Below, piece by piece: positions 9,564 to 57,386 of a DNA stretch of 64,000 nt (position 1 is its first letter; every line of letters starts with the position of its first letter). The stretch lies in IMG/VR virus record IMGVR_UViG_3300022468_000500; one strand, given 5' to 3'. The stretch is from a virus. Its lineage: Duplodnaviria; Heunggongvirae; Uroviricota; Caudoviricetes. Under the pieces are notes generated by a model, which did no database searches, was not told the origin of the DNA, and saw only the letters and a program-made list of their open reading frames with translations. Made by a program: the position numbers and the translations under genes.

Positions 9564-9891
9564 ATTTAACTACGTTAGGGTATTCAAATCTAGGGCACAA
9601 AACTGCTGCAACAATTGTCATACCATAGTTGCGTTCAGTGGTTAGAGACACCTGCTCTTCTTTCATAATTCTGTTCATTTCGGCTTGATTAACCTTGCAT
9701 ACGCACTTCTTATAGCTTTCGCGCAGCCAGTGCTTATACTCAGGAATATTCTCAAAATGCCTGTGTGCTGATAATACAGCATGTGCCACAACGACTGGAA
9801 CCATGTGGTCGTCTACAGTGTCTAGAACAAAGATATACTCTTTTAGCTTACTTAGTTCTGCTGTTAGTTCATCAACTTCTGTCTGTGTCAT
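9514..9891 (-). CDS. hypothetical protein
   Basis: 125-aa ORF. Confidence 0.4.
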   Translation of the reverse strand: MTQTEVDELTAELSKLKEYIFVLDTVDDHMVPVVVAHAVLSAHRHFENIPEYKHWLRESYKKCVCKVNQAEMNRIMKEEQVSLTTERNYGMTIVAAVLCPRFEYPNVVKYAKLWKPTYEIRSSTL

Positions 9892-37823: not shown

Positions 37824-38103
37824 AGACACATACTTTCAATTCGTCAGCGAACAAACAGCACTGCGTGAAAAGTTCTACAGTGACATAAAAGACCTTCATG
37901 CTAAATACGATAGTATTGAAAAGAAACTAAAGGCTAAGGCTTTTGAGGTTTCCGAGCTCAAAGAGCAGCGTATTCTACTAAGTGATGATGACGTACGCTT
38001 CTACTTCCACAATCATGGAGTCGAAGTAGTTATGGTAGATTACAACGGTGATTACATTGACGAATGCCTAGTAACCTGGGAACAACTAAATGACCCTACA
38101 TGA
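37813..38103 (+). CDS. tandem paralog family member 2
   Basis: ...VDYNGDYIDECLVTWEQLNDPT. Confidence 0.45.
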   Translation: MQTKDTYFQFVSEQTALREKFYSDIKDLHAKYDSIEKKLKAKAFEVSELKEQRILLSDDDVRFYFHNHGVEVVMVDYNGDYIDECLVTWEQLNDPT

Positions 38104-38359
38104 GCAATTTGTAACTACAAAACAAAAGCTAGCTGAACTTCATAGGCAGTGGTGTCAAACATACGCTGCACGTGCTGACACCTCAGAGCTAGATAAAAAG
38201 ATTTACGAGCTGAACCGTGAGGTTGCATGGGTGTATTACCATGTACGTAACAATCTAGCACTTGACGCTAAGGACGAGCTGTTCATGACGCCTGATTGTG
38301 TCTCTGTTAGGTACAGTTATCAAGCTACTACGATGTATAAATGGAGTGACGTAGAATGA
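38090..38359 (+). CDS. tandem paralog family member 3
   Basis: Starts MTLHEQF from the conserved junction ctaaatgaccctacatgagcaat. Confidence 0.45.
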   Translation: MTLHEQFVTTKQKLAELHRQWCQTYAARADTSELDKKIYELNREVAWVYYHVRNNLALDAKDELFMTPDCVSVRYSYQATTMYKWSDVE

Positions 38360-38637
38360 CCCTACATGAGCAATACCTAGCGTTTGCTTCAGCTAGTAAA
38401 ATTTTAATTGATGAAGAGAACCGCAAGTATGAGGCTCTTATTAAAGAACACAACAACATTGAGGATAGATTGGCTGTTGCAGCAGTAGCTTTTCTAAATC
38501 GTACTGGTGTTCCTGTAGCTAAGGAAGACTTAGAGTTTTACTTCAGCGATAGAGGTGTTGATGTTGGAATTTTCCAGGAAGATAAATTAGTAGCCGAACA
38601 CCTAGTAACTTGGGAGAAACTAAATGACCCTACATGA
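38356..38637 (+). CDS. tandem paralog family member 4
   Basis: MTLHEQY...HLVTWEKLNDPT. Confidence 0.45.
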   Translation: MTLHEQYLAFASASKILIDEENRKYEALIKEHNNIEDRLAVAAVAFLNRTGVPVAKEDLEFYFSDRGVDVGIFQEDKLVAEHLVTWEKLNDPT

Positions 38638-38899
38638 GCAATTTCAAAGACTAAAGCTAGACGAAGGCATCCTGACTAAAGAATGGAAACGCATCTTCGA
38701 TCAAAACCCTCAACAAGCTGAAGACTTCTATCTAGAGCATATTGACCCTGTTCAATTAAAGCTACTGGCTCTAGAGAAAGAAGTGCTAAAAGCTCTAAAG
38801 TACGATGCAGGCACAGAGATTGTACTTAGTCACAGCCTAATCAGCGTATACCCTAAGGCTTTCCACAATGGCTACCACTATCACTGGACGATGGTATGA
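38624..38899 (+). CDS. tandem paralog family member 5
   Basis: MTLHEQF... Confidence 0.45.
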   Translation: MTLHEQFQRLKLDEGILTKEWKRIFDQNPQQAEDFYLEHIDPVQLKLLALEKEVLKALKYDAGTEIVLSHSLISVYPKAFHNGYHYHWTMV

Positions 38900-39219
38900 C
38901 CCTACGTGAGCAATTCAAGAAGCTTAAAAACGACTTACAGTCCAGTCTGCCTGACCTGGATATTCATACTGTAACCTTCAGCGATGCAGGAATCACTTAC
39001 AAAGATTGGTTCGGTCAACCAAAGCAGATCAGCTGGGGTCGGGTTGACACGCTAGACTTCAGAACTCTGGCAATTGAGCGAGCTAGAGTAATGTACAAAG
39101 TCACAGAAAACCCTAAGGCAATCGCTATTTCTGATAAAGAGGTCGAGCTAGAATTCTCCAATTTTAGGGTTATCCTCACTAAAGAGTTTTTGCTAGACAA
39201 AGCTGTAGTTTATCGCTAA
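38896..39219 (+). CDS. tandem paralog family member 6
   Basis: MTLREQF... Confidence 0.45.
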   Translation: MTLREQFKKLKNDLQSSLPDLDIHTVTFSDAGITYKDWFGQPKQISWGRVDTLDFRTLAIERARVMYKVTENPKAIAISDKEVELEFSNFRVILTKEFLLDKAVVYR

Positions 39220-41925: not shown

Positions 41926-44138
41926 AAAATAATAAGTAAATGTAGACACCAGACCACCCATTACAGATGCCAGGGAATCGATACCCTGATACTTCTTATT
42001 ACTTCACTTGGCTGAATCATCACAGCCCTGTACGTAGCCAGTACTCGGGAGCATGTTAGGGACATTGCTCAACCCACCTAGGATTTTACGTACTTGTTGT
42101 ACGGATGACTTATTATAGGCCATCTGCCCTCAGATTTCACCAGAGGTTAGTAACGTTAGCAGGTGTTAGCTTCCTGATAAAGCTGAATTTGGCCCAGCTA
42201 TAGGCTAACTAGTTTACTAGTATATAGCGTCTTTTACAGCTTAACGCCGCTGTTTGAGTTATACGTACTCCACGCATCTGCGTACTTCATGGCGAACCTT
42301 CGGCAGAGAGTGCATGTTCTGACCCTGTCTTATCTATCTAGTAAATAAGGAGTCACAGTAGACGACCACCACTGAGTTGCTATTTAGAGTCGTACAACCA
42401 CCGACTAGAGGAGCCATATTTTTTGTCTGGGCCGCGACAGAGGACAATTGTTTTTACCGGTCAGCATGCATGACCGCTAGTAGTTTAACGCCCGGTAGCT
42501 GGGCGGCCAGCTCCTACTTAATTCGGCAGCTGGACGGTAGATTGATATAAAGCACATATGACTCTAGGAGACTTGCCGCGATACACCAATAATGCTAGTA
42601 GGTAAACCATTCCATACATTTCCCGGTTGAAAGTCCGGACGACTTAGGTTAGTCGATAGCATAGATATATTCTCTTAAGAGTATGTCACTAGCTAGTGAC
42701 TCTATATCCTGACCCTAGGTGAGCAAGTCGTGAACCAGTGTGGGCCGGTTCAGCAAGACTCGCCCGAGAGCTAGAGTTTCGAGCATTTTAGCAATCTACG
42801 CATACTGGGTTATGCGCAAGTAGGGGAGAACTACTATGCAAGGCTGCTCATCATCAGAGGGTCACCTTAACTCAAAACTTATTGGTCCACGCAGTACGAG
42901 TCGTCTAGTCGAGGTTACTGATCTTGTGTACCGCTTAACCAGTATGTAAATGTTTCATGTTCCAGGTATAATAAGGTCTGCCGACCTCGTTAACATTTCA
43001 CACTACAATCATTCACTCCATAGGCCGATACAGACTCGCCAGTAGCTGTCTTTCGATCTTACTCTAGCAACGGCAGCTGCCACTGCGTGGGCCAATAAGA
43101 CCTGGCACTTAAGCCAGAACTCACTGGGGCTGTGCACCGGTTTTAGTACCTGCACAATTAAGGACGTTACCGCTGTCCACCAATCAACCGTTCGGGTAAG
43201 CCATTACTAGGTTGATTTAATTAATAAATTGTCATTATAATTGAAGAACGACAGGGCGGTTATTTTAGACTGCCCGCGCGCTACGATGAGCGACTAAAAA
43301 TAGACTTTGCCAATTGACGAAACATCGACTAAAATACCATGACCTATTTGAGACAAGCGCTCGCTACAACATGGTAGAGTCATCTATACTTTGCCGTATT
43401 TCAAGTCAGACAGCTTCATAGTAAACAGTTAACTTCATTGCGTTGGTCTACTTACGGCACAGCAGCTACGGCGGCTCAGATTAGACACTAGTTAGGTTGG
43501 TGAAGTTCGTTACGGTCTGCTGTCTGACTTTATATATCAATTATACAGTCTTTAAGTAATCAAGGCAAGTAAGAATTTTCTGAGTACGTTACGAATCATC
43601 GTATTGCCTTGACATACATTATTATACCAAATTACACAACACAGATCAAGTTCAAATTCTAAATCCTTTATGATAAACAACTGAACAAAACCTAAATTCC
43701 TCTTATATACTCTAAATTAATCTCTAATAAGATCGTTTATCGCATATCGTCCGCCTTTCTCGGTTGTTTTTGATATTCTCTTTATCACTAAAGAAACTTT
43801 ATTATACAGCGCTTTGGCTGTCTTATCAAGTACAAAATTCGAAATGCTTCGGTCAAGCCACCCACAATATCTAAAGTCTAAGTAGTTAGATATTTCCAAT
43901 CAGGCCGGAATCGCCGTGGTCGCTTGCCGAAGCTCTGAGGTGTGTCATTAATAACCTCATTGGTTTCTACTCTGACCCTATCTGGTTTGGATGGGGCACC
44001 ATCGTGGTGAAAGGACACTTGAAGGAGGTAATATGAAAATGGCAACCAAGGATAACCGCCAGGAAACTTTAGTTATTTCATAAGCTACGCGGCCAAGACG
44101 CAGCACCAGTAGTGTCAGAGTAGAAAGCGATGAAATCA

Positions 44139-44447
44139 TTAGAAGCTTAGAGAACCTGGTTGCTTATTCCTAAGAGAAGCAAGTACAAGTTCTAACGCTT
44201 CGTGGTTAGCTTTTTCTAGTGATGCAATTTTAGCACGATCGCAGCCAGAGATACCTGCAATACGATCCACCAGATCAGCTTTAGTTGTTCGTGAAGTTTT
44301 GTTAGGATTACTAGAGATAGGTTTGCCGTTGCTTAGGTACATAGCGACAGTGCCGGCCGTGATACCACAGATTCTAGCAATATCGCTGACAGCAGCACCA
44401 TCAAACCACAGCGAATTAACTCTGTCTCTCATCTGGTCTACTGTCAT
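44139..44447 (-). CDS. A2-like HTH DNA-binding protein (paralog 2 of 4)
   Basis: ICGITAGTVAMYLS...KADLVDRIAGISG...LEKANHEALELVL parallels the other paralogs. Confidence 0.45.
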   Translation of the reverse strand: MTVDQMRDRVNSLWFDGAAVSDIARICGITAGTVAMYLSNGKPISSNPNKTSRTTKADLVDRIAGISGCDRAKIASLEKANHEALELVLASLRNKQPGSLSF

Positions 44448-44448
44448 A

Positions 44449-44679
44449 CTAGCTATTCCTCGACTTTATATATCTATTATACGCTGATTTACCAAGAGAG
44501 TCAAGTAAACTTTTATCAATCTCAATCAGTGTAAACTCTTTTTGTCTCGCTAAGCCTATATTATACAGATTTGTAGTTCGCTTTGCAAGATCAGAATTTG
44601 AAACGTAATCAGTGTAGTATTCCCCACTGAATGGGCAAAGCGCTATAGTTTTTACTTGTCTGTTATTCATATTGCCCAA
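44449..44679 (-). CDS. hypothetical protein
   Basis: 76-aa ORF. Confidence 0.3.
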   Translation of the reverse strand: MGNMNNRQVKTIALCPFSGEYYTDYVSNSDLAKRTTNLYNIGLARQKEFTLIEIDKSLLDSLGKSAYNRYIKSRNS

Positions 44680-44839: not shown

Positions 44840-45110
44840 AGTTTTTGCACTTGAACCTAGCTGATCTAGATGCCAAGGATTAGCACTAGCTTTCATTTTC
44901 ACATGAGTTTATCCACTAACCCGCACGTAATGCCAAGATTTTGCACTTGCCAAGGTTTTGCACTGGCGCAACCCACCTAACCGGTGAGTTGCAACTAAGA
45001 CGACTTGGTCGCGACTTGAGCGTATACGTCGCGAATTGAACGTATGAGGCACGAATGCAGTATTTTAGTCGTAACGCATACGTATTAGTCACGAATTAAA
45101 CGTATGAGTC
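44840..45110. repeat. direct-repeat cluster (TTTTGCACT / TGCCAAG repeats, DnaA-box-like tttatccac, four about 20-bp iteron-like repeats GTCGCGAMTTGARCGTAT)
   Basis: ttttgcact at 44843, 44938, 44956; tgccaag at 44871, 44931, 44949; tttatccac at 44908; tandem gtcgcgacttgagcgtat / gtcgcgaattgaacgtat / gtcgtaacgcatacgtat / gtcacgaattaaacgtat at 45009-45109. Confidence 0.5.
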
Positions 45111-45198
45111 GTGACCGATCAGTCACCGCACCAGATATGACCCACCCATTATAGCACGAAAAACAATACCCCTACGAAAAATAAGTTATAAATATTCC

Positions 45199-45227
45199 TT
45201 GCACAAGCCTGGAGCTTGAGGTATAAT
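45199..45227 (+). promoter_or_regulatory. cassette promoter TTGCAC-N17-TATAAT (copy 1 of a repeated unit)
   Basis: Preceded by conserved ccctacgaaaaataag UP-like block. Confidence 0.55.
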
Positions 45228-45233
45228 TTTGGC

Positions 45234-45300
45234 GCACCCAAATGCGAATGATTCTCATTCGCTGCCTGGCCGAATAAGAATCATTCCACCAGGTACACGT
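45234..45300 (+). ncRNA. candidate small RNA (promoter-hairpin-terminator cassette copy 1)
   Basis: Begins a few nt after the -10; contains hairpin gcgaatgattctcattcgc; ends at terminator 45301-45333. Confidence 0.3.
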
Positions 45301-45333
45301 AAAAAAGCCCGGACAATCCGGGCTTTTGTCTTT
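45301..45333. terminator. bidirectional rho-independent terminator
   Basis: aaaaaagcccggacaatccgggcttttgtcttt. Confidence 0.65.
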
Positions 45334-45679
45334 AAAAATCATATTCGTCAAAATACGGGGCATAGCTTTTACCCGTATGTCGATCAATAAAATTCGGGTT
45401 AATACCACGCCATTTATTAGCCCAGTATTTAGCGCTGCGTTCGTTCAGAAAAACCTGAACTGGCCTAGCGTCATATTCATAACCGGTAACGCCACGGTCG
45501 GCCATCGAGAATTCCGGTCGATAAGATTTTGTCTTAAAGATGGAATAAAAGGTATCATTCCAATCCTTCGGAACCCTTGCGCGAATAATAACCTTTTTAG
45601 GGTTACCACAATGATCCAAAACCCAAACGGATTTACCGGCTTTAATGTCGGCTTTGCGTGCGAGTGAATGACGGGACAT
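45332..45679 (-). CDS. hypothetical protein
   Basis: 115-aa ORF; first gene of the high-GC module. Confidence 0.4.
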   Translation of the reverse strand: MSRHSLARKADIKAGKSVWVLDHCGNPKKVIIRARVPKDWNDTFYSIFKTKSYRPEFSMADRGVTGYEYDARPVQVFLNERSAKYWANKWRGINPNFIDRHTGKSYAPYFDEYDF

Positions 45680-45687
45680 ATAACCCC

Positions 45688-45918
45688 CTAATTTAAGACA
45701 ATGGGAAACTTAACAACCCGTTGAAGCCATATAACCTCAACGCGGGAATAATCCGTATAGTTATCAATGCCAGCATTGAAAAACCGGAATTTATCCAAGT
45801 AATCCGCCGCTTTGTTGATAATCAATGCGCGGGCATCCTGAACTGACAAACCGTTAAATTCGGTAATCCCGCCCATTTCATCAAAGTTAACCGTCAGCAT
45901 CGCCATGATTAAAACCAA
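45688..45918 (-). CDS. hypothetical protein
   Basis: 76-aa ORF. Confidence 0.35.
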   Translation of the reverse strand: MVLIMAMLTVNFDEMGGITEFNGLSVQDARALIINKAADYLDKFRFFNAGIDNYTDYSRVEVIWLQRVVKFPIVLN

Positions 45919-46092
45919 TTAATCGAGGGGAAAACCATGGACAGATAGCCCAAAATCGTAAAGAGCCCCAAAACGGTAAAAATCAAACCAACGGCTTTAG
46001 AAAACAAATTCTGGCCAGAAAAAAGAAACCACAAACCAAACACAAACATAGCCAGAAAATCGAGAATGAGAATCAGTTGCAAAGACATAATG
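45913..46092 (-). CDS. small membrane protein (59 aa)
   Basis: My own translation MSLQLILILDFLAMFVFGLWFLFSGQNLFSKAVGLIFTVLGLFTILGYLSMVFPSINWF; below the ORF-track cutoff. Confidence 0.3.
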
Positions 46093-46166
46093 CCCCCATG
46101 AAAAAATCTTTTGCATGGCTATTATACCATGCAAAAGGGTTTTTCAACCCTTTTGTTTTTGCCCGG

Positions 46167-46568
46167 TTATTCCGGGGCATGCCCGTTATCGGCGGCCATC
46201 TGGTCGGCGGTGGCGTCATCGTGCGCCGTGCTGACGGATTCAGACAGGGCCTTGAAAATGGCGGCCAGTGCGGTTTTGTTGCATTTCGTCAGCGAATCGG
46301 TGTCGTTTTCGTTCAGGCGGAGAATCGCGCCGATTGCGTCCGCGTGGTCATCCTTTTTAACCGAAGGTTCCCCGTTTTTGGTGGTGTAAGCCTTCTTTTT
46401 GTAAACCCCTTCGCGCGACAGCTTCGCCACGATGGAGCGGGCGGTCTTGCCCAGTTCAGCGGCCAGCTTTTCCACGGTTTCCGCCGTAGGGTTTGCCACG
46501 TAGGCTTGCACCATGCTGGCGGTTTGTTCAGCGGTATAGTTCACGGCCTTTTCAGTCTTAGCGGTCAT
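46167..46568 (-). CDS. A2-like HTH DNA-binding protein (paralog 3 of 4)
   Basis: VEKLAAELGKTARSIVAKLSREGVYKKKAYTTKNGE...TKCNKTALAAIFKAL. Confidence 0.55.
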   Translation of the reverse strand: MTAKTEKAVNYTAEQTASMVQAYVANPTAETVEKLAAELGKTARSIVAKLSREGVYKKKAYTTKNGEPSVKKDDHADAIGAILRLNENDTDSLTKCNKTALAAIFKALSESVSTAHDDATADQMAADNGHAPE

Positions 46569-46744
46569 TTTGAAGCATCCTTAAAAATGGATTGTAACAC
46601 AAAATCTTAGGTTTTATTTTTTTATCGCCCTTTGCTGCGATATGGGTTTATTATAACACGGTTTTTTAGCGCTTTGCAAGTATTTTCGGAATTTATTTTT
46701 TCTTTCCTTTTCTCGCGTTGTGCCAGTTTCCCGGCATGTGTAGA

Positions 46745-46775
46745 TTATACATGAATCCCGCCGCCAGGTATGACC
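46745..46775 (-). promoter_or_regulatory. minus-strand promoter with extended -10 (plus-strand catgtgtagattatacatg)
   Basis: Reverse complement reads ...catgtataatctacacatg; same box recurs at 49975. Confidence 0.4.
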
Positions 46776-46993
46776 CTACGAAAAATAGGTTTTTATTGAC
46801 AATGCACCAGGTTTAGCGTATGCATGCGGCCAGGCCTACTGCTATCATTTTAATAGCAAAATCGGCGCCTGCCCTATTATAGCACACAAACCTGGCCCTG
46901 TGTCAATACCCTACAAAAATAAAGTTATTGACAAGTCGCCAGGCTTGATGTACCAAAAATTTGTAAATGATTCTCATTCCACCAGGTACACGT

Positions 46994-47023
46994 AAAAAAG
47001 CCTCGATTAATCGAGGCTTTTTA
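46994..47023. terminator. bidirectional rho-independent terminator
   Basis: aaaaaagcctcgattaatcgaggcttttta. Confidence 0.65.
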
Positions 47024-47374
47024 GTAACTGGGGGCCATTATACCATCATATTCTACGCCAGTTTCTAAGGATAGTAGCTTTGCCAGTGATTTAAATTCTT
47101 TACCATGCCCATAATCCCAAAATCCGTTTTCGGCTTGCCATGCGTGAATTAACTCATGCAAAATAACTTTAATTGGATCATGCGCTTTAATCGAATAGTC
47201 GATTACATGATGTTGCCCGAATTTTTCAGTGTATGCAAAGGTATAGTAACCTAACGCAGTATGCGCAACTTTATCGACTTGCTTTCTTATTATCCGCTTA
47301 TGTTCTTTATAAACGATGCGCCGTTTTAGGTCCAAAACCTTAAGCGCCTTTTTAACCAGTTTACTGTTTTCCAT
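47021..47374 (-). CDS. SprT-like zinc metalloprotease-motif protein
   Basis: HELIHAWQAENGFWDYGHGKEF; paralog of 51182..51583. Confidence 0.5.
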   Translation of the reverse strand: MENSKLVKKALKVLDLKRRIVYKEHKRIIRKQVDKVAHTALGYYTFAYTEKFGQHHVIDYSIKAHDPIKVILHELIHAWQAENGFWDYGHGKEFKSLAKLLSLETGVEYDGIMAPSY

Positions 47375-47412
47375 AATAGATAATGCCCCGGATTATCTCC
47401 GGGGCATCCTCA

Positions 47413-49143
47413 TTACATGAAAATAATCTGTCGCTGGCCGTTAACGTAGGTTACCACGTTTGCAAGCTGCCAGCTACTGGGGCCAATGTTATAACCCATT
47501 TCCAGCGAACCCGATACGCCCGCAGTGTAGCATGCGCCGGTAATGCTGGGGGTGTGTGTATGGCCCGTATTCATGGGGATTCCCAATGTACGGAACTGGG
47601 CAGGGCTGCCCCGGCTGCCGTTGATACCCGTATGTCCATGACAGCCCATTTCAACGCCCGCCATCATAACGGATTCGTCAGTTTCATGGAATACGATTTG
47701 TTGCGAGTATCGGCCACCCCCGATTTCATAATATGCGAATTTCAGCATATTAAAATCAGAATTGCCAGTTTCTGCAATATGCGTATAAAGTGCAGTAGTG
47801 CAGCGCAAGTAAGTCAGCGCGTTTACTGGGTCCGTTTTGAAGTCGGCATTTTTCAGCCACGTATTAATCGCCAGATCATGATTCGATTCGATAACGTGGA
47901 CATTTACCCCAGTTTCTGCAATCGCGTCAATAATGCGCGCCACGGTTTTAACGTCGCCCTCTACCGTATTATTAGCCACGGTTTGCGCGAACATAAAAGC
48001 GCAATCCTTAACGTTATGATGGTTCCGGCTGGAAAAATCCATTACATCATGCAAAAGCACGTTTTCAGGCTGAAACCGGGCAATTTCAGCGCGGATTTTA
48101 TCGAGATTTTCAGCAGTCATTTTTTCCGCGTGAATATCCCCGAATTGCAGCGCTTTTACATCGCCATCTGTCTGGTTAAATGCCCCTTGCGCATTAAAAA
48201 ACATATCCTCATCAAAGAAACCGGTAGATTCTGGCATCAGCTCCAATTGACGCACCACGGCCGGACCAGTACCGCGAGTATCGACAACCAAAGCGCCAAT
48301 GTTATGTTCAGTAGCGGCCACCGCGCCAGCTTTGCGCGTGATGTAATTACGCTTTGTAATGCTGCCCGTCGAATACAGCACCTTACCGCGTGCATGCTTG
48401 AGCGAAGCCGTGCATTTGAGGGAGATTTTCACAGCCGGGATGATAATGTCAATGCCTGCGGGCGTGATACCCTCGAAACCCGAAAGCGGATTTTTTGCCG
48501 TGGGCAGTACGTTTGCCTGTGCAACAAAATCAATTTTGCCCGCGATACGGATTTGTTCATTGACAATGTATTGCACAATTTCAGGGGCATAATAAATGCC
48601 ATCCTCGAATTGTTCCACGGATTGGAACCCGTTTTTGTTGTACGTGGTTTTTGCCACCAGCAACCGCGCGCCAGTATGTTCACAGTAAGAACGCAGCGCA
48701 CCCAGCATTACCGCATCCACATCGGTGTTATTTTGCGCCGTAGTTACCACGTACAACCCAGCAGGCAATTCGGTCACATGCGCGCCGGCATCATCTACGC
48801 CAGCAGAAACCGGCTTTGCTGCGTCCTTTTCTTGCTTTTCGATGGCTTTGCGCGCCTTATCCTGTGCCACCAGATGACGCCGCAGGGTTTCGCTTTCCAG
48901 AATCGCATTAACTGCCTCGATTGGCTGATTTTCGTAATCGGCCAATTGCATCATTTCCTTGACAATTTCGGCCTTTTTATCGGCCTTCTTTGCGCGGAAA
49001 TAGCCCAGAGTTTGCGCAGTAATGATAACTTCTTTTTCGTTCATGGTTAGCCTTAAAATACCGGATACCGCCGGATTATCGCGGATTGTAGCGTTTTGCT
49101 GCAATGAGGAAATTATAACACGGTTTTTTGAGGAAACCGCCAA
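47413..49143 (-). CDS. A1: A1-like large metallophosphoesterase-domain protein (T5 pre-early A1 analogue)
   Basis: 576 aa; C-terminal half has ordered calcineurin-like motifs GDIHA, HDVMDFS, ESNHD, CHGHTG, GHTHTPS; size and context resemble T5 A1. Confidence 0.65.
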   Translation of the reverse strand: MAVSSKNRVIISSLQQNATIRDNPAVSGILRLTMNEKEVIITAQTLGYFRAKKADKKAEIVKEMMQLADYENQPIEAVNAILESETLRRHLVAQDKARKAIEKQEKDAAKPVSAGVDDAGAHVTELPAGLYVVTTAQNNTDVDAVMLGALRSYCEHTGARLLVAKTTYNKNGFQSVEQFEDGIYYAPEIVQYIVNEQIRIAGKIDFVAQANVLPTAKNPLSGFEGITPAGIDIIIPAVKISLKCTASLKHARGKVLYSTGSITKRNYITRKAGAVAATEHNIGALVVDTRGTGPAVVRQLELMPESTGFFDEDMFFNAQGAFNQTDGDVKALQFGDIHAEKMTAENLDKIRAEIARFQPENVLLHDVMDFSSRNHHNVKDCAFMFAQTVANNTVEGDVKTVARIIDAIAETGVNVHVIESNHDLAINTWLKNADFKTDPVNALTYLRCTTALYTHIAETGNSDFNMLKFAYYEIGGGRYSQQIVFHETDESVMMAGVEMGCHGHTGINGSRGSPAQFRTLGIPMNTGHTHTPSITGACYTAGVSGSLEMGYNIGPSSWQLANVVTYVNGQRQIIFM

Positions 49144-49159
49144 ACCTGAAAATTATTTT

Positions 49160-49636
49160 TTAATGCCCCTGTTTCGATGGTACATAAACCCCACGGATTC
49201 CGAAGCGGTCGCAAACTGCTTTCAGGTATTGGATATTATCTTCATAAAAGACAAAATCCGCAGCCTTAAAAGGTTTCAGGTTGAAAAACCGCGCCAGTCC
49301 GTTGATTTTCAGGGTTTTCCCCGATTGATTATCCCCCGGCTTACGTGAGATAAAATGATCTGGCATGCCCAGCACGTTATTCACAAATTCCCAATCGGGG
49401 GCATGCATTTCACGCGCAGTAGCGATAACCGTAAAGCAATTTTCATCGCGCAGGTCCGCCCGGTATTGTTCCGCAAGGGGCAAAAGGGAATCATCCATTG
49501 CCAGATGCTGATTTTCGCGCCAATGCGCTAAGTCGATGCGTTCGCCCGCATCATCAATAATGGTCCGATAACGATGGCTGGAATCCACAATTGTCCCATC
49601 CATATCGTAAATTGCAACACGATTAATTTTAGCCAT
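49160..49636 (-). CDS. dmp: HAD-family 5'-deoxynucleotidase-like protein (dmp-like)
   Basis: IYDMDGTIVDS HAD motif I; start placed at MAKINRVAIYDMDG. Confidence 0.65.
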   Translation of the reverse strand: MAKINRVAIYDMDGTIVDSSHRYRTIIDDAGERIDLAHWRENQHLAMDDSLLPLAEQYRADLRDENCFTVIATAREMHAPDWEFVNNVLGMPDHFISRKPGDNQSGKTLKINGLARFFNLKPFKAADFVFYEDNIQYLKAVCDRFGIRGVYVPSKQGH

Positions 49637-49643
49637 GATTGAA

Positions 49644-49907
49644 TTATACCACGTAGTTAAAGAAGCCAATAACGTTTGCCGTGAAATAAACCCCTTGCAG
49701 CGCAATAAAATTACGCTGGCGATACATCACAGCAGAGAAAAGGAGACAAGCGCTAGACAGAAGAAAAAACGGATACCCGTATTTTCCCAATGCAAGGGCC
49801 ACCAAAAACGCGCCAATAATACCGGCTGCGGTTCCAATGGTTTCAATGAATTTAAGTTTAGTCATAATAAGCTGCAATAGCCCCATTATATTCTGCCACG
49901 GTTGCAA
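49644..49907 (-). CDS. small membrane protein
   Basis: Two or three hydrophobic helices. Confidence 0.35.
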   Translation of the reverse strand: MQPWQNIMGLLQLIMTKLKFIETIGTAAGIIGAFLVALALGKYGYPFFLLSSACLLFSAVMYRQRNFIALQGVYFTANVIGFFNYVV

Positions 49908-50034
49908 AAGTCAAGCCCTTTTCCTTCGCCCATTTTGCGAACTCCTGGTGCTCTTTCGTGCTGTATCGTTTTGTCATGTGTAGATTATAGCGAGAAAATC
50001 CAGCGTATTTTTAACCCTACAAAAATAAGCTATT

Positions 50035-50063
50035 ATTAAATTCCTTGCACGCGCCAGGTTTGT
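50035..50063 (+). promoter_or_regulatory. cassette promoter TTGCAC-N17-TATAAT (copy 3)
   Basis: taaccctacaaaaataagc UP block, extended -10 tgatataat; transcript region has hairpin gctatcaaaatgatagc. Confidence 0.5.
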
Positions 50064-50177
50064 GTGATATAATTTTGGCGCACCCATGCTATCAAAATGA
50101 TAGCTTGAAAAGATATGACCCACCCATTGTACCATAAAAGACGCCTAAAATAATAACCCTACAAATAATAAGTCTCT

Positions 50178-50206
50178 TGCACGCGCCAGGAATACGTGCT
50201 ACAATT
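50178..50206 (+). promoter_or_regulatory. cassette promoter TTGCAC-N17-TACAAT (copy 4)
   Basis: taaccctacaaataataag UP block; followed by gcgaatgataatcattcgc hairpin and gcaaagccctttcgggctttgc hairpin (50248-50295). Confidence 0.5.
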
Positions 50207-50294
50207 ATGACGTGGTAATGTGGGCCCAAAATCGGCGCACCCAAATGCGAATGATAATCATTCGCATTTGATGCAAAGCCCTTTCGGGCTTTGC

Positions 50295-50645
50295 TTATGA
50301 GGCACCGAAGAACCAAGCGATAGTATCCGCTTCGTTTTCAAGATTCATATCAATATTTTGACCACCGGATTCAGTGCGGCGAGACATAGTTTGCTCGTTA
50401 AACCAGCGATCGAGCGCCAAATACTGGCCCACCTTAACGCGGAATTTGTCGTCTTTGCTGCATTGTGCTACAGCAAAACGCACGAATTCAGAATCGAGAC
50501 GGTTAGGTACAGCCGGGACCACAACCACCACAATCCCATGGTCCGGGTAAGTGAACATTGCACCACCCGCCGCCAGCAGTTGTTTTTTCAAAAACTTGCG
50601 TTCGTCGCGTTGTTCAGCGGTCAACTTAGGGGTATTCTTTGCCAT
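50295..50645 (-). CDS. hypothetical protein
   Basis: Start placed at MAKNTPKLTAEQ. Confidence 0.4.
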   Translation of the reverse strand: MAKNTPKLTAEQRDERKFLKKQLLAAGGAMFTYPDHGIVVVVVPAVPNRLDSEFVRFAVAQCSKDDKFRVKVGQYLALDRWFNEQTMSRRTESGGQNIDMNLENEADTIAWFFGAS

Positions 50646-50715
50646 GATTGAAAATTTCCAGAAAAAGTTAAAAAGGTTTCTGCTACGTGGGCACAATGGC
50701 CCACGGCGGCCAGGA

Positions 50716-51063
50716 TTAGTCGTTCAAGGGCTTGCTATTCGCCAGGGCAAGCATTACCGCTTTCAGCGCGGTCTTGTTCGCCTTAGTCAACGAATCTGTA
50801 TCAGCTTCGGACAGCTTGAGGATTCGCCCGATGGTTTCGGCGTGAGTGTCTTTCTTAACCGGCTTTTCGCCAGTCTTCGAGACATATTCTTTCTTTTTGT
50901 AAATGCCCATACGGGACAGCTTCGCCACAATCGAGCGGGCCGACTTGCCCACCAGTTCACCCAGTTGTTCTACGGTGTAGCTACCGGATGTGTAACCATC
51001 ACGCAGGATGGTTTCTTGTTCAGCGGTGTAGTTCGCTACCTTTTCAGCTTTTGCGGTTGCCAT
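50716..51063 (-). CDS. A2-like HTH DNA-binding protein (paralog 4 of 4)
   Basis: LGELVGKSARSIVAKLSRMGIYKKKEYVSKTGE...TKANKTALKAVMLAL. Confidence 0.55.
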   Translation of the reverse strand: MATAKAEKVANYTAEQETILRDGYTSGSYTVEQLGELVGKSARSIVAKLSRMGIYKKKEYVSKTGEKPVKKDTHAETIGRILKLSEADTDSLTKANKTALKAVMLALANSKPLND

Positions 51064-51181
51064 TATCGAAGCTCCTGTTAGGATGTATCACGATTTACGG
51101 GTTTTATGCAGTTCCCGATTACTGCCTATGTGTCTATTATATCCCTGTTTTCCCTACTTTGCACAATCTTTTTATTTTATT

Positions 51182-51583
51182 TTATTTTATTTTCAGATTG
51201 TGATAAGTATTAGGGGGCAATCCATATTGCACCATCATGGATTTCCATAACGGGCCGTGGGCTTGTCGTTTAGTGGCAGGCGCCGTCCAGCACCCGTACA
51301 GCAAACGGTCAGCCGCATGGATTAATTCATGGGCTAGAATTTCCAGCACCATTTTACGTTTATTTTCCTCGAACTGATACAGCTTAAAGCTCAGTTCAAT
51401 AAAGCTCGCATCATGCTCGCACCATCCCGCAGTCGTGCGCAAGCGTGCATTAATTCTAAGCTCGGGCGCTTTATGTGCTGCCAGTGCTGGCCATAAGCGA
51501 ATCATTCGCGCCCAATGCTTACCCACATATGGGATAACTTCAGCATACATCTGATCTTTAGTCATGCTGATATTATACCCCAT
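51182..51583 (-). CDS. SprT-like zinc metalloprotease-motif protein
   Basis: LAHELIHAADRLLYGCW. Confidence 0.5.
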   Translation of the reverse strand: MGYNISMTKDQMYAEVIPYVGKHWARMIRLWPALAAHKAPELRINARLRTTAGWCEHDASFIELSFKLYQFEENKRKMVLEILAHELIHAADRLLYGCWTAPATKRQAHGPLWKSMMVQYGLPPNTYHNLKIK

Positions 51584-51970
51584 TCGACCCTATCTGATTC
51601 AGTGTTACAAACTGTTACACCTATCAACGCGCATCCATAAAGCCACGTTCCCATTCATGCCATTCTGCCGTGCCCATAGCATAAGGGTTAGAGTGTGTAC
51701 GCTGTACGCCTGCGGGTTGATTCTTAATAATCATCCACGTATTGCGCCCGCCGATGTATGCTTGGGACATAGTGTTACCCTTAGTTGTATCGTTGCACAT
51801 GATACGATTATATCACGGTTTCATTACGCATACAAAGTAGTATGCGAAAGGTCCGCCGATAAGTACAGCCATAAGGCATGCATGTATCAGATCACGCGCC
51901 AGGTACTGCAGTTCTTTTTTCATCATGGTATGAATTCTAACACAGAAAAATTGAAATTTGCAAAAGAAAA

Positions 51971-52047
51971 GTGTAACAGTTTGGGGTGACAGCTTTACAA
52001 ACTGTTACACATTATTCCTTGCGAAATTTTGTCAGGTGTGGTACAAT
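51971..52047 (+). promoter_or_regulatory. 12-bp inverted-repeat operator (gtgtaacagttt ... aaactgttacac) followed by promoter TTGCGA-N17-TACAAT
   Basis: IR at 51971-52010; -35 at 52019, -10 at 52042 with TG extension; TGTTACA half-sites also at 51604 and 51614. Confidence 0.45.
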
Positions 52048-52183
52048 AGTAGAGGGGATATTAGACTGTTGTTTCCATACCACACCGGTGGCCCTCCGTC
52101 ACGTAAACTTATAGAATTTTTCCACAAAAGTATTTTGTACGCAGAAGCATAGCTAGACGCCCCAATCGCCCCATATTCCCCAA

Positions 52184-52846: not shown

Positions 52847-53152
52847 TCATAGCGGTTTTCTAAAGTCCAACTGTGGGTAGATTCCTTCACACGTATTACT
52901 AATAGGCCTAGGTCTAGTTACTCGCATATCTACTGTAATAGGCTTTTTTGGACGCAGAAAGAAATCTATTACCGTAGATTTACTAAGCCTAGCATTAAAT
53001 TCATCTTCAGTAATTCGTTGCTCATACCACGACCACTTGAAGTTCTTACGATCCCAGCCGTCGGGGTCCATGACTACATGTTGATGGATTTCGTTCCATT
53101 CTTCGCTTGTTTTTAGATCAATCATAGTTTTGCTCTCATCTTTTTGTACCAT
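52847..53152 (-). CDS. hypothetical protein
   Basis: 101-aa ORF. Confidence 0.35.
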   Translation of the reverse strand: MVQKDESKTMIDLKTSEEWNEIHQHVVMDPDGWDRKNFKWSWYEQRITEDEFNARLSKSTVIDFFLRPKKPITVDMRVTRPRPISNTCEGIYPQLDFRKPL

Positions 53153-53751
53153 GGTAATTTATTGAAAGTGTTGATAGCTTTCATCCGCTCCCAGAAAACC
53201 TCATCTAGTGCACGGTACATGTCTCTAGCAGCTTTTAGTTCTGCTCTTAGCTTGTTAATAATCTCAGGGTCTTTTAGCTGATTTTCAGCATCAATAGCTC
53301 TAGCTTCTTGTTCATCAGCATAGTATCCTACCTTATCTAGTTGTTCCTCTAAGCTAGTAATTTCGACCCTACACGAGCGAAGATCAGCAGTAACTTCTTT
53401 ATAGGTATTTAAAACCTTCTCAATAGGGTCAAACGTACTAGAGTTTTGTAGAAGGTAGCTTACTGCTTCCCAGTTGTAGCGATCTGGCTTAGGGTAGTTA
53501 GTATTAAGCTGAGGACGTAGAGCGTGGATGAAATATGCTTCAAACATGTCTAGGTAGTCTGGATGACAGTTTAGCATCACGGTAAAGTGTGCTACTCCTA
53601 GGTTCATGTTGTAAGCTACCTGAAGCTTACGAGCTGCTCTATTCATCAGAAAGTCTTTTTGATGCTCGTCCCATCTAGTGCCGAGGTTGATTGACTGTCC
53701 GATGTAGAACTCCCCTCTAGGAAATTCTATCTTATAAATGCCTGAGTTCAT
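53122..53751 (-). CDS. GIY-YIG homing endonuclease
   Basis: MNSGIYKIEFPRGEFYIGQSINLGTRWDEH. Confidence 0.7.
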   Translation of the reverse strand: MNSGIYKIEFPRGEFYIGQSINLGTRWDEHQKDFLMNRAARKLQVAYNMNLGVAHFTVMLNCHPDYLDMFEAYFIHALRPQLNTNYPKPDRYNWEAVSYLLQNSSTFDPIEKVLNTYKEVTADLRSCRVEITSLEEQLDKVGYYADEQEARAIDAENQLKDPEIINKLRAELKAARDMYRALDEVFWERMKAINTFNKLPWYKKMRAKL

Positions 53752-53930
53752 TACTTTCCTTAAAATGATATTATACGACTTTTCAGAAAGGGTTACAAGA
53801 TAGAAATTTTTGTTGTACTTGCTTGTGTTGGTTCTGAACCGAAATTATTAGGTTGTTTACGTGGTCTCGGTGGCTAGAATTATTGGGAACTCCGTGATAC
53901 TTGAGTGCAATATTCTTGCTTGCGAGTTGG

Positions 53931-53965
53931 TCGTTGAACGTGTATAATTTATCCTAGACGTTGTA
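53931..53965 (+). promoter_or_regulatory. promoter TTGCGA-N17-TGTATAAT for the late-module first gene
   Basis: ttgcgagttggtcgttgaacgtgtataat; strong RBS ggagg 8 nt before ATG 53990. Confidence 0.5.
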
Positions 53966-53989
53966 AATTAACGTCTAAATGGAGGTATT

Positions 53990-54967
53990 ATGGAACAACA
54001 ACTCCCAATTCTATCTGAAGAGGTAGATAAGGAATGCAAACCATACGATACGTATGGTTTGAAAACGAAGGAAGACAAAATGGAACATATTGTAACACAG
54101 GCACCTAGTAATGATGCTGCCCTAATTGCTGCACTAACCGCTAATCGTGGTGGTGGTGACGGCCTAGGTTTTGGCGGCATGGGTATGGGCGGCCTGTTAG
54201 TCGGCGCTCTATTAGGAAGCAACGGAGGTCTCTTCGGCGGCAACCGTAACAACGTAGAAGGCGTAGTAACGCCTACAATGCTATCTAGCTCACTAGATGG
54301 CGTAATGGCCAACAGCAACAACACGGCTATTCAAACCAAGCTAGGTACTATTGAAGCAGCTATCCCTTATAACGAAGCACAAATGCAACTAGCTTTAGCT
54401 GGTAGTACTGCAAGTATTCTAGGTGCTGCACAGCAAAATGCACTATCTATTGCTAATGGTGTCGCTAACACGAACCAGTCAATTAACAACGCTATTGCGA
54501 CTTCTCTAGAGTCACAAAACCGTCTAAAAGACAATATTACTAGCACAGGTGCAGCTAATCTAGCCGCAACTAACCAAGTAGGTAACCAGGTACAGCAAAA
54601 TGCGTTCATTCTTGCCCAAGCTATTACAAATGATGGCGAGCGTACTCGTGCTCTTATTACTAGCCAGTATGAAGCTAATCTACAGCGTGAACTAACAGTA
54701 GCACAAAATGCTCTAACAGAACAGCGTAATGCTGCTCGTGTTCGTGAAGTAGAAGTGAATGTTACAAACAACGCTACAGCTACTGCTCAACAATCACAAG
54801 CGCAATATCAACAACAGCAACAATTACAACTATTAGTGCAACAAAATGCTCTAATTAGTAATCTAGCTAATGATATTCAAATGGTACGTCAAGGTCAAAC
54901 TATTTTCAATAGTGGAACCATGGCAGCTAGTGGTACTCAAGCAGCCGCTAACACACGCGTGAACTAA
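53990..54967 (+). CDS. low-complexity Gly/Gln/Asn/Ala-rich protein (structural or decoration candidate)
   Basis: 325 aa with GGGDGLGFGGMGMGG glycine block and long Q/N/A-rich region; own promoter and terminator. Confidence 0.4.
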   Translation: MEQQLPILSEEVDKECKPYDTYGLKTKEDKMEHIVTQAPSNDAALIAALTANRGGGDGLGFGGMGMGGLLVGALLGSNGGLFGGNRNNVEGVVTPTMLSSSLDGVMANSNNTAIQTKLGTIEAAIPYNEAQMQLALAGSTASILGAAQQNALSIANGVANTNQSINNAIATSLESQNRLKDNITSTGAANLAATNQVGNQVQQNAFILAQAITNDGERTRALITSQYEANLQRELTVAQNALTEQRNAARVREVEVNVTNNATATAQQSQAQYQQQQQLQLLVQQNALISNLANDIQMVRQGQTIFNSGTMAASGTQAAANTRVN

Positions 54968-56966: not shown

Positions 56967-57386
56967 ATGGCAGTTAACACTAATAAACGTATACCGGTCA
57001 AGCACATCCGGGATGGGGCTAAAGCAGCCTATAACAAACAGGCTCACTGCTACATTTGTGGCACTAGTGAAGAATTAGAATTGCATCACACGCACTCTCT
57101 TACCCTGCTACTAAATAAGTGGGCAAAAGAAAAAGGCTATGATCTTTCGACTGACGAGCTAGTTTTAGCTATTAGAGACGAGTTTATTCAGGAACACCGT
57201 TACGAGTTATACGATGCAGTTTATACCTTATGTAATCCGCATCATGTAAAACTTCACAGTGTGTACGGAAAAGCTCCTCCACTAAGTACGGCGGATAAAC
57301 AAAGCAAATGGGTAGAAGTTCAAAAGTCCAAGTTCGATGGTACGTATGTAGCACCTAAGACTTCGTTATTTGGAGCCTTTACATAA
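56967..57386 (+). CDS. HNH homing endonuclease
   Basis: CYICGTSEELELHHTHSL ... CNPHHVKLH HNH zinc-finger core. Confidence 0.75.
   Translation: MAVNTNKRIPVKHIRDGAKAAYNKQAHCYICGTSEELELHHTHSLTLLLNKWAKEKGYDLSTDELVLAIRDEFIQEHRYELYDAVYTLCNPHHVKLHSVYGKAPPLSTADKQSKWVEVQKSKFDGTYVAPKTSLFGAFT

Follow-up and report, generated by a model that had tools for sequence, protein, structure and literature searches.

Conserved outward promoter units with a GGCGC box and a palindrome in the pre-early module of an uncultivated T5-like phage

The virus record IMGVR_UViG_3300022468_000500 (Caudoviricetes) is a DNA stretch of 64,000 nucleotides, in the following called the window. Its part from 45.1 to 52.1 kb is a pre-early or first-step-transfer (FST) module with a gene set as in the FST segment of phage T5. 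The strongest predicted promoters of this module are not those that drive the pre-early genes. They are stereotyped, near-consensus sigma-70 promoters on the opposite strand, here called outward, and they would fire into palindromes and terminators; the same holds for more than 100 related metagenomic contigs. These promoters are conserved, strictly outward in orientation, placed at gene 3' ends, devoid of downstream coding capacity and followed by palindromes or terminators. The GGCGC box at their predicted start and one type of palindrome are shared with the nick and injection-stop region of T5 and BF23. The unit architecture is strikingly conserved and undescribed; in kind, it falls among the cassettes of promoter and terminator and the short units of antisense transcription that are known from phages.

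Injection of T5-like phage DNA is a two-step process, in which the first 8% has to take over the cell with the host RNA polymerase alone. The organisation of the FST DNA, the transfer pause and the role of the strand-specific nicks are questions that have been standing since the 1960s-70s. The units give a concrete starting point, defined by sequence, for experimental work on how pre-early genes are regulated and, possibly, on what the nicks do. They are also a ready set of promoter cassettes predicted to be very strong and self-terminating.

Outward units in the window and in related contigs

A preliminary description had listed repeated plus-strand units at 45160, 46770, 46900, 50010, 50150 and 52019. 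All six are present at these coordinates, with shared blocks far above chance, and are here called A to F. The motif CCCTACRAAAAATA, with up to two mismatches, is found six times against 1.4 expected; five of the six matches are on the plus strand inside the module, and none of 100 shuffles reached six. The box GGCGCACCC occurs three times, always on the plus strand (0.13 expected), and GCGCACCC four times on the plus and never on the minus strand. Sigma-70 promoters were defined by a TTGACA-like -35 and a TATAAT-like -10 hexamer 16-18 bp apart, a TGn and an A/T-rich upstream element being optional. A, D, E and F fit this definition.

A, D and E are good promoters with 17-bp spacers, each followed by the GGCGCACCC box and by a perfect inverted repeat that starts a few nucleotides past GGCGC. 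Unit A (45170-45334, plus strand) comprises an CCCTACGAAAAATAAG block, TTGCAC-17-TATAAT (45199-45227), the box (45231-45239), a palindrome (45244-45262) and a bidirectional terminator (45303-45334). Unit D (50015-50104, plus strand) has a CCCTAC block, TTGCAC-17-TGaTATAAT (50045-50073), the box (50077-50085) and the palindrome GCTATCAaaaTGATAGC, i.e., GCTATCA-aaa-TGATAGC, at 50088-50104. A and D have TATAATTTTGGCGC in common, with GGCGC within 12 nt past the -10. Unit E (50157-50297, plus strand) starts with a CCCTAC block and TTGCAC-17-TGcTACAAT (50177-50205), but its box (50234-50242) is 28 nt past the -10; a 29-nt perfect palindrome (50242-50270) and an end hairpin (50273-50294) follow, the latter abutting the stop codon of the gene at 50295-50645. 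The palindrome GCGAATGA-N3-TCATTCGC is present in A (45244-45262) and in E (50247-50265).

B and C are degenerate. B (46774-46830, plus strand) has the CCCTAC block and TTGACA (46796-46801), with TATGCA as its -10 hexamer. C (46909-47022, plus strand) had not been recognised as degenerate, yet it is equally so: behind the CCCTAC block and TTGACA (46928-46933) the -10 position reads TACCAA, which is no real -10, and its orthologues in the contigs L010 and L011 (see below) lack one, too. It retains a remnant palindrome, AATGATTCTCATT at 46966-46978, and a terminator at 46995-47022. Neither B nor C has a credible -10. The outermost site, F (51934-52047), is a divergent pair made up of an outward TTGCGA-17-TGgTACAAT (52019-52047, plus strand) and a minus-strand promoter (51963-51934) with TGTTACA-type repeats between them. 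It is a promoter, but as a copy of the unit it lacks the CCCTAC block and the GGCGCACCC box. Repeats of the TGTTACAAACTGTTACA type (51603-51619, 51993-52009) flank this pair, and its tgtaacagtttgtaaca block recurs ahead of many outward units of the IMG/VR relatives.

As had been stated, every plausible gene in 45.3-51.6 kb is encoded by the minus strand, and the units face these genes. The only member of the family in sense orientation in the window is B' (46841-46906, minus strand; TTGACA-19-TGcTATAAT, GGCGCC and palindrome GCTATTAaaaTGATAGC), with orthologues in L010, L011 and L013. The predicted outward RNAs measure ~100 nt for A, ~88 nt for E and ~220 nt for D. Those of A and E fold as two hairpins (z about -6), with a strong terminal hairpin beside the stop codon of the converging gene. 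Three copies had been said to run through a hairpin into a terminator; this applies to A and E, but D lacks its own terminator, and its transcript would continue through E. The supposed bidirectional terminator of E exists as a hairpin, but without a good T-run.

Every promoter spacer contains CCWGG, a Dcm/EcoRII-type site; in A, D, E and B' it precedes the -10 by 9 nt. It is found 13 times in 1.8 kb of intergenic DNA of the module (45208-51899) and 73 times in the whole 64 kb.

A protein search yielded relatives of A1, the DNA transfer protein, at 84-85% identity, and the contigs L010 and L011 are syntenic with the window. Units A, B/B', C and D are at the same places in both. The cassettes are 77-87% identical to these orthologues, whereas in the flanking genes the third codon positions, taken where the residues are identical, agree only to 56-75%; hence, purifying selection acts on the non-coding units. 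The L010 and L011 orthologues of A and D have a better -10, TGgTATAAT, and orthologues in both contigs carry the exact 17-mer TGGTATAATTTTGGCGC. The stretch from palindrome to terminator differs in length and sequence between the window and these two contigs. Distant relatives with an A1 of 51-66% identity (L004, L005, L008, L012, L013, L015) carry the same kind of unit, TTGACA-17-(TG)nTAnAAT, then after 1-4 nt GGCGC and a few nucleotides on a perfect inverted repeat. Nearly all of their copies are opposite to A1, and the palindromes are mutually unrelated in sequence. The relatives include the full consensus TTGACA-17-TGgTATAAT, and some of them have tandem arrays of units.

The exact 17-mer TGGTATAATTTTGGCGC is present in at least 120 IMG/VR stretches, and 118 of 120 such loci encode proteins homologous to dmp, A2, SprT or terminase of the window among the matches listed, a scope that also applies to the following counts by reference gene. 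The loci were retrieved with the motif itself, which means that the presence of a unit is by construction, but its orientation is not; many units are orthologous, and the counts are not independent events. Relative to dmp, 131 units are opposite and 1 is on the same strand. The respective numbers are 151-155 and 1-5 for the A2-like gene, and 125 and 1 for SprT. On the terminase side the relation is inverted: 1 unit is opposite to TerS and 115 are on its strand, for TerL it is 1 and 104, for a nicking-endonuclease homologue 0 and 64, and for the portal 0 and 59. The window conforms to the family, with the units on the plus strand, dmp, A1, A2 and SprT on the minus strand, and TerL and portal on the plus strand.

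A promoter pattern that is independent of GGCGC gave 341 distinct outward and 25 sense matches in the relatives, and GGCGC follows within 12 nt in 313 of the 341 near-consensus outward promoters (92%). Within 45 nt, 102 of 136 units have an inverted repeat that is perfect over 6 bp or more and typically begins 5-9 nt past the first G. In a second set such a repeat was found in 18 of 24 units versus 13.8% of other GGCGC sites (Fisher p=4e-10), and among 480 distinct units of relatives in 329. The perfect stems are typically 10-12 bp long, and the A...T polarity, which is bidirectional-terminator-like, prevails over the mirror form (92 vs 22).

The design is clade-wide, a large and previously undescribed family of near-consensus sigma-70 promoters in an uncultivated T5-like lineage. 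Over a hundred related contigs keep the units in outward orientation, which makes them a conserved, though still unexplained, feature of the start of infection in this group of T5-like phages. An exact 24-mer of unit A was not found in IMG/VR, and blastn of the family consensus unit against deposited phages gave no match. By tblastn (E<=1e-3), A1 has no match in any of the 120 loci retrieved with the 17-mer (L018-L137) among the matches listed; in L036 (6658-8398), the sole locus inspected, there is no A1-sized open reading frame (ORF) between dmp and SprT, where the window and L010-L015 have A1.

Proposed convergent transcription at the ends of pre-early genes

We favour, with not quite even confidence, the view that the outward units are short convergent non-coding transcription units that would act in cis at the boundaries of transcription units. 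They are located just downstream of pre-early gene 3' ends, usually back-to-back with the next pre-early promoter, and on the strand of the terminase and head genes. In the relatives, the stop codon of a convergent ORF is at a median distance of 150 nt from the unit, and within 300 nt in 98 of 126 cases. The next 1 kb past the units is covered by ORFs to 63% on the opposite strand versus 26% on the same strand. A terminator-like site is found within 120 nt of 34 of the 136 units, but of only 11 of 240 random controls.

The host RNA polymerase would bind the outward promoters as soon as the DNA enters. Transcription would start at or beside GGCGC, 5-9 nt ahead of the perfect palindrome, and the polymerase would mostly stop there or at the converging gene's bidirectional terminator. 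This would yield non-coding RNAs of ~35-220 nt, the shortest being predicted in relatives, whose sole overlap with the converging mRNA is the 3' terminator. Two effects could thereby close the pre-early unit: head-on interference of the convergent polymerase with read-through, and pairing of the short RNA with the hairpin at the 3' end of that mRNA, in the manner of lambda OOP. OOP is a short RNA transcribed in cis-antisense to cII, from a promoter of its own to a terminator of its own, and overlaps ~50 nt of coding sequence. The units have in common with it the constitutive host-type promoter opposite to an early gene and, as predicted, a short non-coding RNA that converges on a 3' end and has a terminator. 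OOP, however, is single, while the window phage has several units per genome, and the overlap here would be limited to the shared terminator hairpin. In the window family, moreover, it is the promoter that is conserved rather than the RNA.

A number of points weigh against such boundary transcription. Promoter activity, start sites, ends and function are all read from the sequence. With strict criteria, a terminator is found within 400 nt in only 45% of the units, and some outward transcripts may run far into antisense territory. The tandem arrays of the relatives are not explained by a pure boundary model. B and C have lost their -10 and are promoter-dead, yet their sequence is kept; therefore, something besides outward transcription is also selected there. 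The strict conservation of GGCGC and the conserved spacer of the relatives, CGGGCCAAAATTATG, are left unexplained. The orientation statistics, finally, stem from motif-retrieved loci with many orthologous and, hence, not independent units. If the units were only boundary elements, they would be a tidy but modest addition to the grammar of phage gene regulation.

We do not think that the function lies in a trans-acting small RNA (sRNA) of defined sequence. Abundant early sRNAs had been the proposal of the preliminary description. If trans-acting, the hairpin RNAs themselves would be the product and might, e.g., act as decoys of a host RNase, of an RNA-binding protein or of a defence sensor, or regulate mRNAs of the host. 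That short non-coding transcripts are made remains the straightforward prediction. The predicted promoters are strong and conserved, there are no ORFs downstream, and most of the predicted products are short and terminated, that of D being the one that runs through E. The long perfect stems, typically 10-12 bp, would yield stable hairpins resembling double-stranded RNA, and GGCGC would be a common 5' end. The 480 distinct units, however, agree in nothing but their promoter, the GGCGC box and the presence of a perfect palindrome of some kind. The sequence of the palindrome, the RNA length (~35-220 nt) and the RNA body all vary; there is no conserved single-stranded seed, and hairpins differ even within one genome. 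Nor do the palindromes bear a signature of selection as outward-strand RNA, as judged from mismatch spectrum and folding energy: on the outward strand, 3 mismatches are G:T versus 12 A:C, and a small folding-energy advantage of the opposite strand is gone after control for base composition (p=0.40). The search of Rfam 15 that had been recommended revealed only tRNAs in the window and no match at E<0.1 or at the gathering score in 44.8-52.3 kb. No conserved small ORF was found after the outward promoters. The varied RNA bodies, the missing strand-specific signature, the lack of an Rfam family and of a conserved small ORF argue against an sRNA family with a common functional sequence, which is not supported; the two promoter-dead but conserved copies in the window speak against it as well. 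We consider such trans-acting RNAs unlikely.

Some simpler ideas were discarded. The small ORFs that can be found downstream of the promoters have their ATGs inside the palindrome, lack a ribosome-binding site and show no conservation when the window is compared with L010. Operators of one repressor such as A2 fail as a general explanation of the palindromes, as single genomes carry several unrelated palindromes at the same position; those of the AATGA-N3-TCATT type may still be operators. The sponge for host RNA polymerase that had been suggested would be quantitatively implausible, since each cell would receive a single DNA molecule with no more than a few such promoters.

Nick sites, injection-stop repeats and other known systems

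None of the known systems that we compared fits the units as a family. Nearest by sequence are the injection-stop repeats and the nick site of T5 and BF23; nearest by logic are lambda OOP, the cassettes of T4-type phages discussed below and lambda PR'-tR'. The T5-type FST context and the resemblance to the T5 nick site and injection-stop repeats had been overlooked in the first inspection.

The T5 nick consensus is 5'-N Pu/pGCGC N-3' in the annotation of NC_005859 (the slash marks the cut) and has also been given as R/GCGCRGG (PMC3517423). The late genes and all nicks of T5 are on one strand (NC_005859), to which the plus strand of the window is equivalent. Of the major nick sites annotated in T5, three distinct ones were inspected (9748, repeated in the right terminal repeat; 22336; 39746), and they read A/GCGCAGGG on the late-gene strand. 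The 7.9% nick is located in the injection-stop region; behind it lie a palindrome and repeats of AATGCGAATGATAAT and AATGATTCTCATTT.

The GGCGC box might accordingly be the recognition site of a T5-type HNH nicking endonuclease that would cut G/GCGC on the plus strand, and the palindromes might be the equivalents of the injection-stop repeats. The units would then primarily be signals in the FST DNA itself, with or without coupling to the promoter, and the nick would be in the non-template strand at the start site. We regard this, too, as improbable. The Pu/GCGC core recurs on the late-gene strand of the window as tttG/GCGCa in A and D, as atcG/GCGCa in E and as actG/GCGCa at 44964, and GCGCACCC, as mentioned, is confined to the plus strand (4 vs 0). 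The boxed units obey a one-strand rule, 115:1 with TerS among the matches listed, as nick sites require; the orientation rule of the promoters alone would lead to the same. The T5 repeats AATGCGAATGATAAT and AATGATTCTCATTT recur without change in the palindromes of A, C and E, of which they form the arms. The palindrome of E agrees with a BF23 injection-stop repeat in 26 of 27 bases (E=1e-7). Exact AATGATTCTCATT is present at 9587-9668 of T5 and in units A and C, and in both T5 and the window exact AATGA-N3-TCATT is confined to these elements. A promoterless GGCGCA box with a hairpin, GGCGCAACCCACC-taa-CCGGTGAGTTGC, is found at 44964-44995 with ttttgcac repeats before it, and the entire block of 44931-45130, with these repeats, the promoterless box and 20-nt direct repeats, resembles the context of the T5 7.9% nick.

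Between TerL and portal, which is the position of the nicking endonuclease in T5, the window encodes an HNH protein (56967-57386, plus strand) with 63% identity to an L013 protein flagged PF26848 and 46% identity to T5.153. Our own Pfam search did not detect PF26848 in this protein, nor in T5.153 itself. The search is thus blind even to T5.153, and the nickase assignment therefore rests on precomputed matches and pairwise identity. On this basis, the T5 family of nicking endonucleases has a homologue in the window, in syntenic position.

Other findings are adverse. Only RGCGC(R) is shared. The extended GCGCRGG is absent: its GG is CC in the window, which has GCGCACC, and is not conserved in the relatives, which have GCGC(C/A) followed by variable bases. 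Bare GGCGC and GGCGCA, tried as a proxy for nick sites, are without strand bias in the window (17 vs 37 and 9 vs 11, respectively). In hundreds of units the box is locked 1-4 nt past the -10, which points to a part of the promoter or of the initial transcribed sequence. The T5 nick sites, by contrast, are promoterless and spread over the genome, whereas the boxes of the window are confined to the pre-early region.

In sum of likeness, both systems are non-coding FST DNA of a Demerecviridae-type phage, on the same strand relative to the late genes, with a GCGC-containing box and palindromes after it, and the AAATGCGAATGA-N3-TCATTCGCATTT palindrome is kept nearly base for base (26 of 27 with BF23, exact 13-15-mers with T5). 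In contrast to T5, where the repeats form one cluster and no promoter precedes the nick, the repeats of the window are dispersed and each is fused to an outward promoter. Also, the pre-early genes of the window run the opposite way relative to the late genes. A bolder version, to which we give slightly less credit still, is that GGCGC at every outward promoter start is a nickase target and that packaged DNA would arrive nicked in the non-template strand at each start, beside palindromes of the injection-stop type. If nicking were real, two long-unexplained features of T5, the strand-specific nicks and the injection-stop repeats, would be coupled to the binding of host RNA polymerase on the first-injected DNA. 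Possible consequences would be promoters that are pre-opened on incoming DNA only, or template-strand breaks that halt pre-early transcription toward DNA not yet injected.

Promoter-early stem-loop (PeSL) cassettes have been described for T4-type phages (PMC2839356, PMC4122927). The units resemble them in being small composite motifs of terminator and promoter that recur between the small, variable early genes of a large virulent phage. Read on the sense strand, every unit boundary in the module runs from terminator through spacer to promoter, with the conserved strong promoter in antisense. In PeSLs, terminator and promoter run in gene direction. The most conserved and strongest promoter of the window, in contrast, points the opposite way and has a GGCGC box and a perfect palindrome. 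The units might nevertheless provide short homologies for gain, loss or swap of small pre-early genes, a role that is compatible with the others. Repeated composite units do flank small variable genes, and the genes beside unit A differ: the window has a 115-aa and a 59-aa gene, L010 none and L011 an 82-aa gene. This would leave strict outward orientation, GGCGC box and perfect palindromes unexplained. Such recombination cassettes seem quite improbable.

Least likely, and in our opinion very doubtful, are promoters under control of antitermination. Lambda PR'-tR' is a constitutive late promoter that makes a short terminated RNA until Q acts. The units likewise appear as strong promoters firing into a nearby terminator and co-oriented with terminase and head genes, again 115:1 for TerS among the matches listed; the spacer and start region is highly conserved in the relatives, and the nearest unit is a median 1.3 kb upstream of TerS. 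A phage factor, acting e.g. at this conserved region, might permit read-through; the resulting antisense transcription could shut off the pre-early genes, or transcription could be passed on to the terminase and head genes, which have the same orientation. Unlike in lambda, however, genes of the opposite strand separate the units from the late genes (in 59 of 83 loci, a pre-early gene intervenes on the way from the nearest unit to TerS), no Q-like factor, antiterminator or pause element was identified, the spacer of the window departs from the clade consensus, and the late operon of the window has a promoter of its own at 53920-53948. The intervening genes in the 59 loci and this separate promoter also led us to reject, for the most part, the units as direct promoters of the terminase operon.

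Neighbouring elements and genes of the window

The minus-strand partner promoters are of three kinds: TATAATCTACACATG (B, D), TGnTAYAATGGGTGGGTCATATC (A, E) and B' (C). A single back-to-back box had been proposed. catgtgtagattata indeed partners B and D, but A and E have TG(c/g)TA(T/C)AATGGGTGGGTCATATC, and the partner of C is B' (46906-46841), a minus-strand unit of the same family. An outward unit and its neighbouring sense promoter have the A/T-rich upstream block in common. The sense promoter back-to-back with A (45134-45157, minus strand) consists of TGCTATAAT and GGGTGGGTCATATCTGG, and the same box is found in L010, L011 and L013. TATAATCTACACATG at 46735-46749 (minus strand), with its -10 six nucleotides ahead of the ATG, is invariant in L010 and L011; a second copy (49975-49989, minus strand), likewise invariant in these two contigs, is back-to-back with D. 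The position of the -10, six nucleotides before the ATG, suggests leaderless mRNAs for both. The promoter made of TGGTACAAT and GGGTGGGTCATATC (50112-50135, minus strand) is back-to-back with E and face-to-face with D; D and this promoter converge at a distance of ~50 bp, with a palindrome in between.

At the inner edge of the module (44931-44995, plus strand), TGCCAAGATTTTGCACT is present twice, followed by the promoterless box and the hairpin tGGCGCAACCCACC-taa-CCGGTGAGTTGC; this is kept in L010. Then comes a non-coding, injection-stop-like block of direct repeats of ~20 nt, similar to GTCGCGAATTGAACGTATAC (45008-45130), with four perfect copies in L010. By its sequence, the region 44931-45130 looks like a counterpart of the T5 injection-stop region. 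Only unit A adjoins this repeat-rich block; the other units are dispersed through the module. The palindrome TTTTGCATGG-TATAATAGC-CATGCAAAA (46108-46137), which surrounds a minus-strand -10 just downstream of the A2-like gene and is kept in L010 and L011, looks like a candidate operator.

The genes of the module are those of a T5 FST segment. The A1 homologue (47413-49044, minus strand; phrog_1745, E=1.5e-155) is ~40% identical to A1 of T5 and BF23. A homologue of dmp, the 5'-deoxynucleotidase, is at 49160-49636 (minus strand), with PF26880 detected on the orthologues of L010 and L011. There are two paralogues each of an A2-like DNA-binding protein (46167-46568 and 50716-51063, minus strand; PF26822 on orthologues, weak) and of a SprT-like protein (47021-47374 and 51182-51583, minus strand); small membrane proteins are encoded as well. 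The two A2-like and the two SprT-like paralogues share one pre-early module with the two main palindrome types. Megablast of 45.1-52.1 kb and of 26-37 kb against deposited phages gave no match, and A1 is at most ~42% identical to that of isolates over most of its length. With the gene set of a T5 FST segment and no close deposited phage, the source is therefore a distant, uncultivated T5-like phage with the units in its pre-early module.

Elsewhere, the window contains 21 minus-strand tRNA genes between 2.7 and 24 kb and the plus-strand late genes for terminase large subunit, portal and protease-capsid at 55.5-60.5 kb. Between the pre-early module and the terminase operon there is a GIY-YIG homing-endonuclease-like gene (53122-53751, minus strand). 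The promoter of the terminase-side operon, TTGCGA-17-TGtTATAAT at 53920-53948, is followed by a palindrome, TAGACGTT-N7-AACGTCTA, ahead of the ribosome-binding site (53920-53990 in all); promoter-proximal palindromes are thus a general habit of the window phage. A separate A/T-rich promoter family, AAATTTanACTTGAt ... TGTATAAT, on the minus strand at 958-25907 and 43526-44508, precedes tRNA and small genes and is probably an early promoter class distinct from the pre-early units. Four copies of AATGACCCTACATGAGCAAT, spaced ~268 nt apart, lie at 38089-38914, and a motif of the GACCCTATCTGATC type is found at three further sites (41151, 51582, 53361) and in L010.

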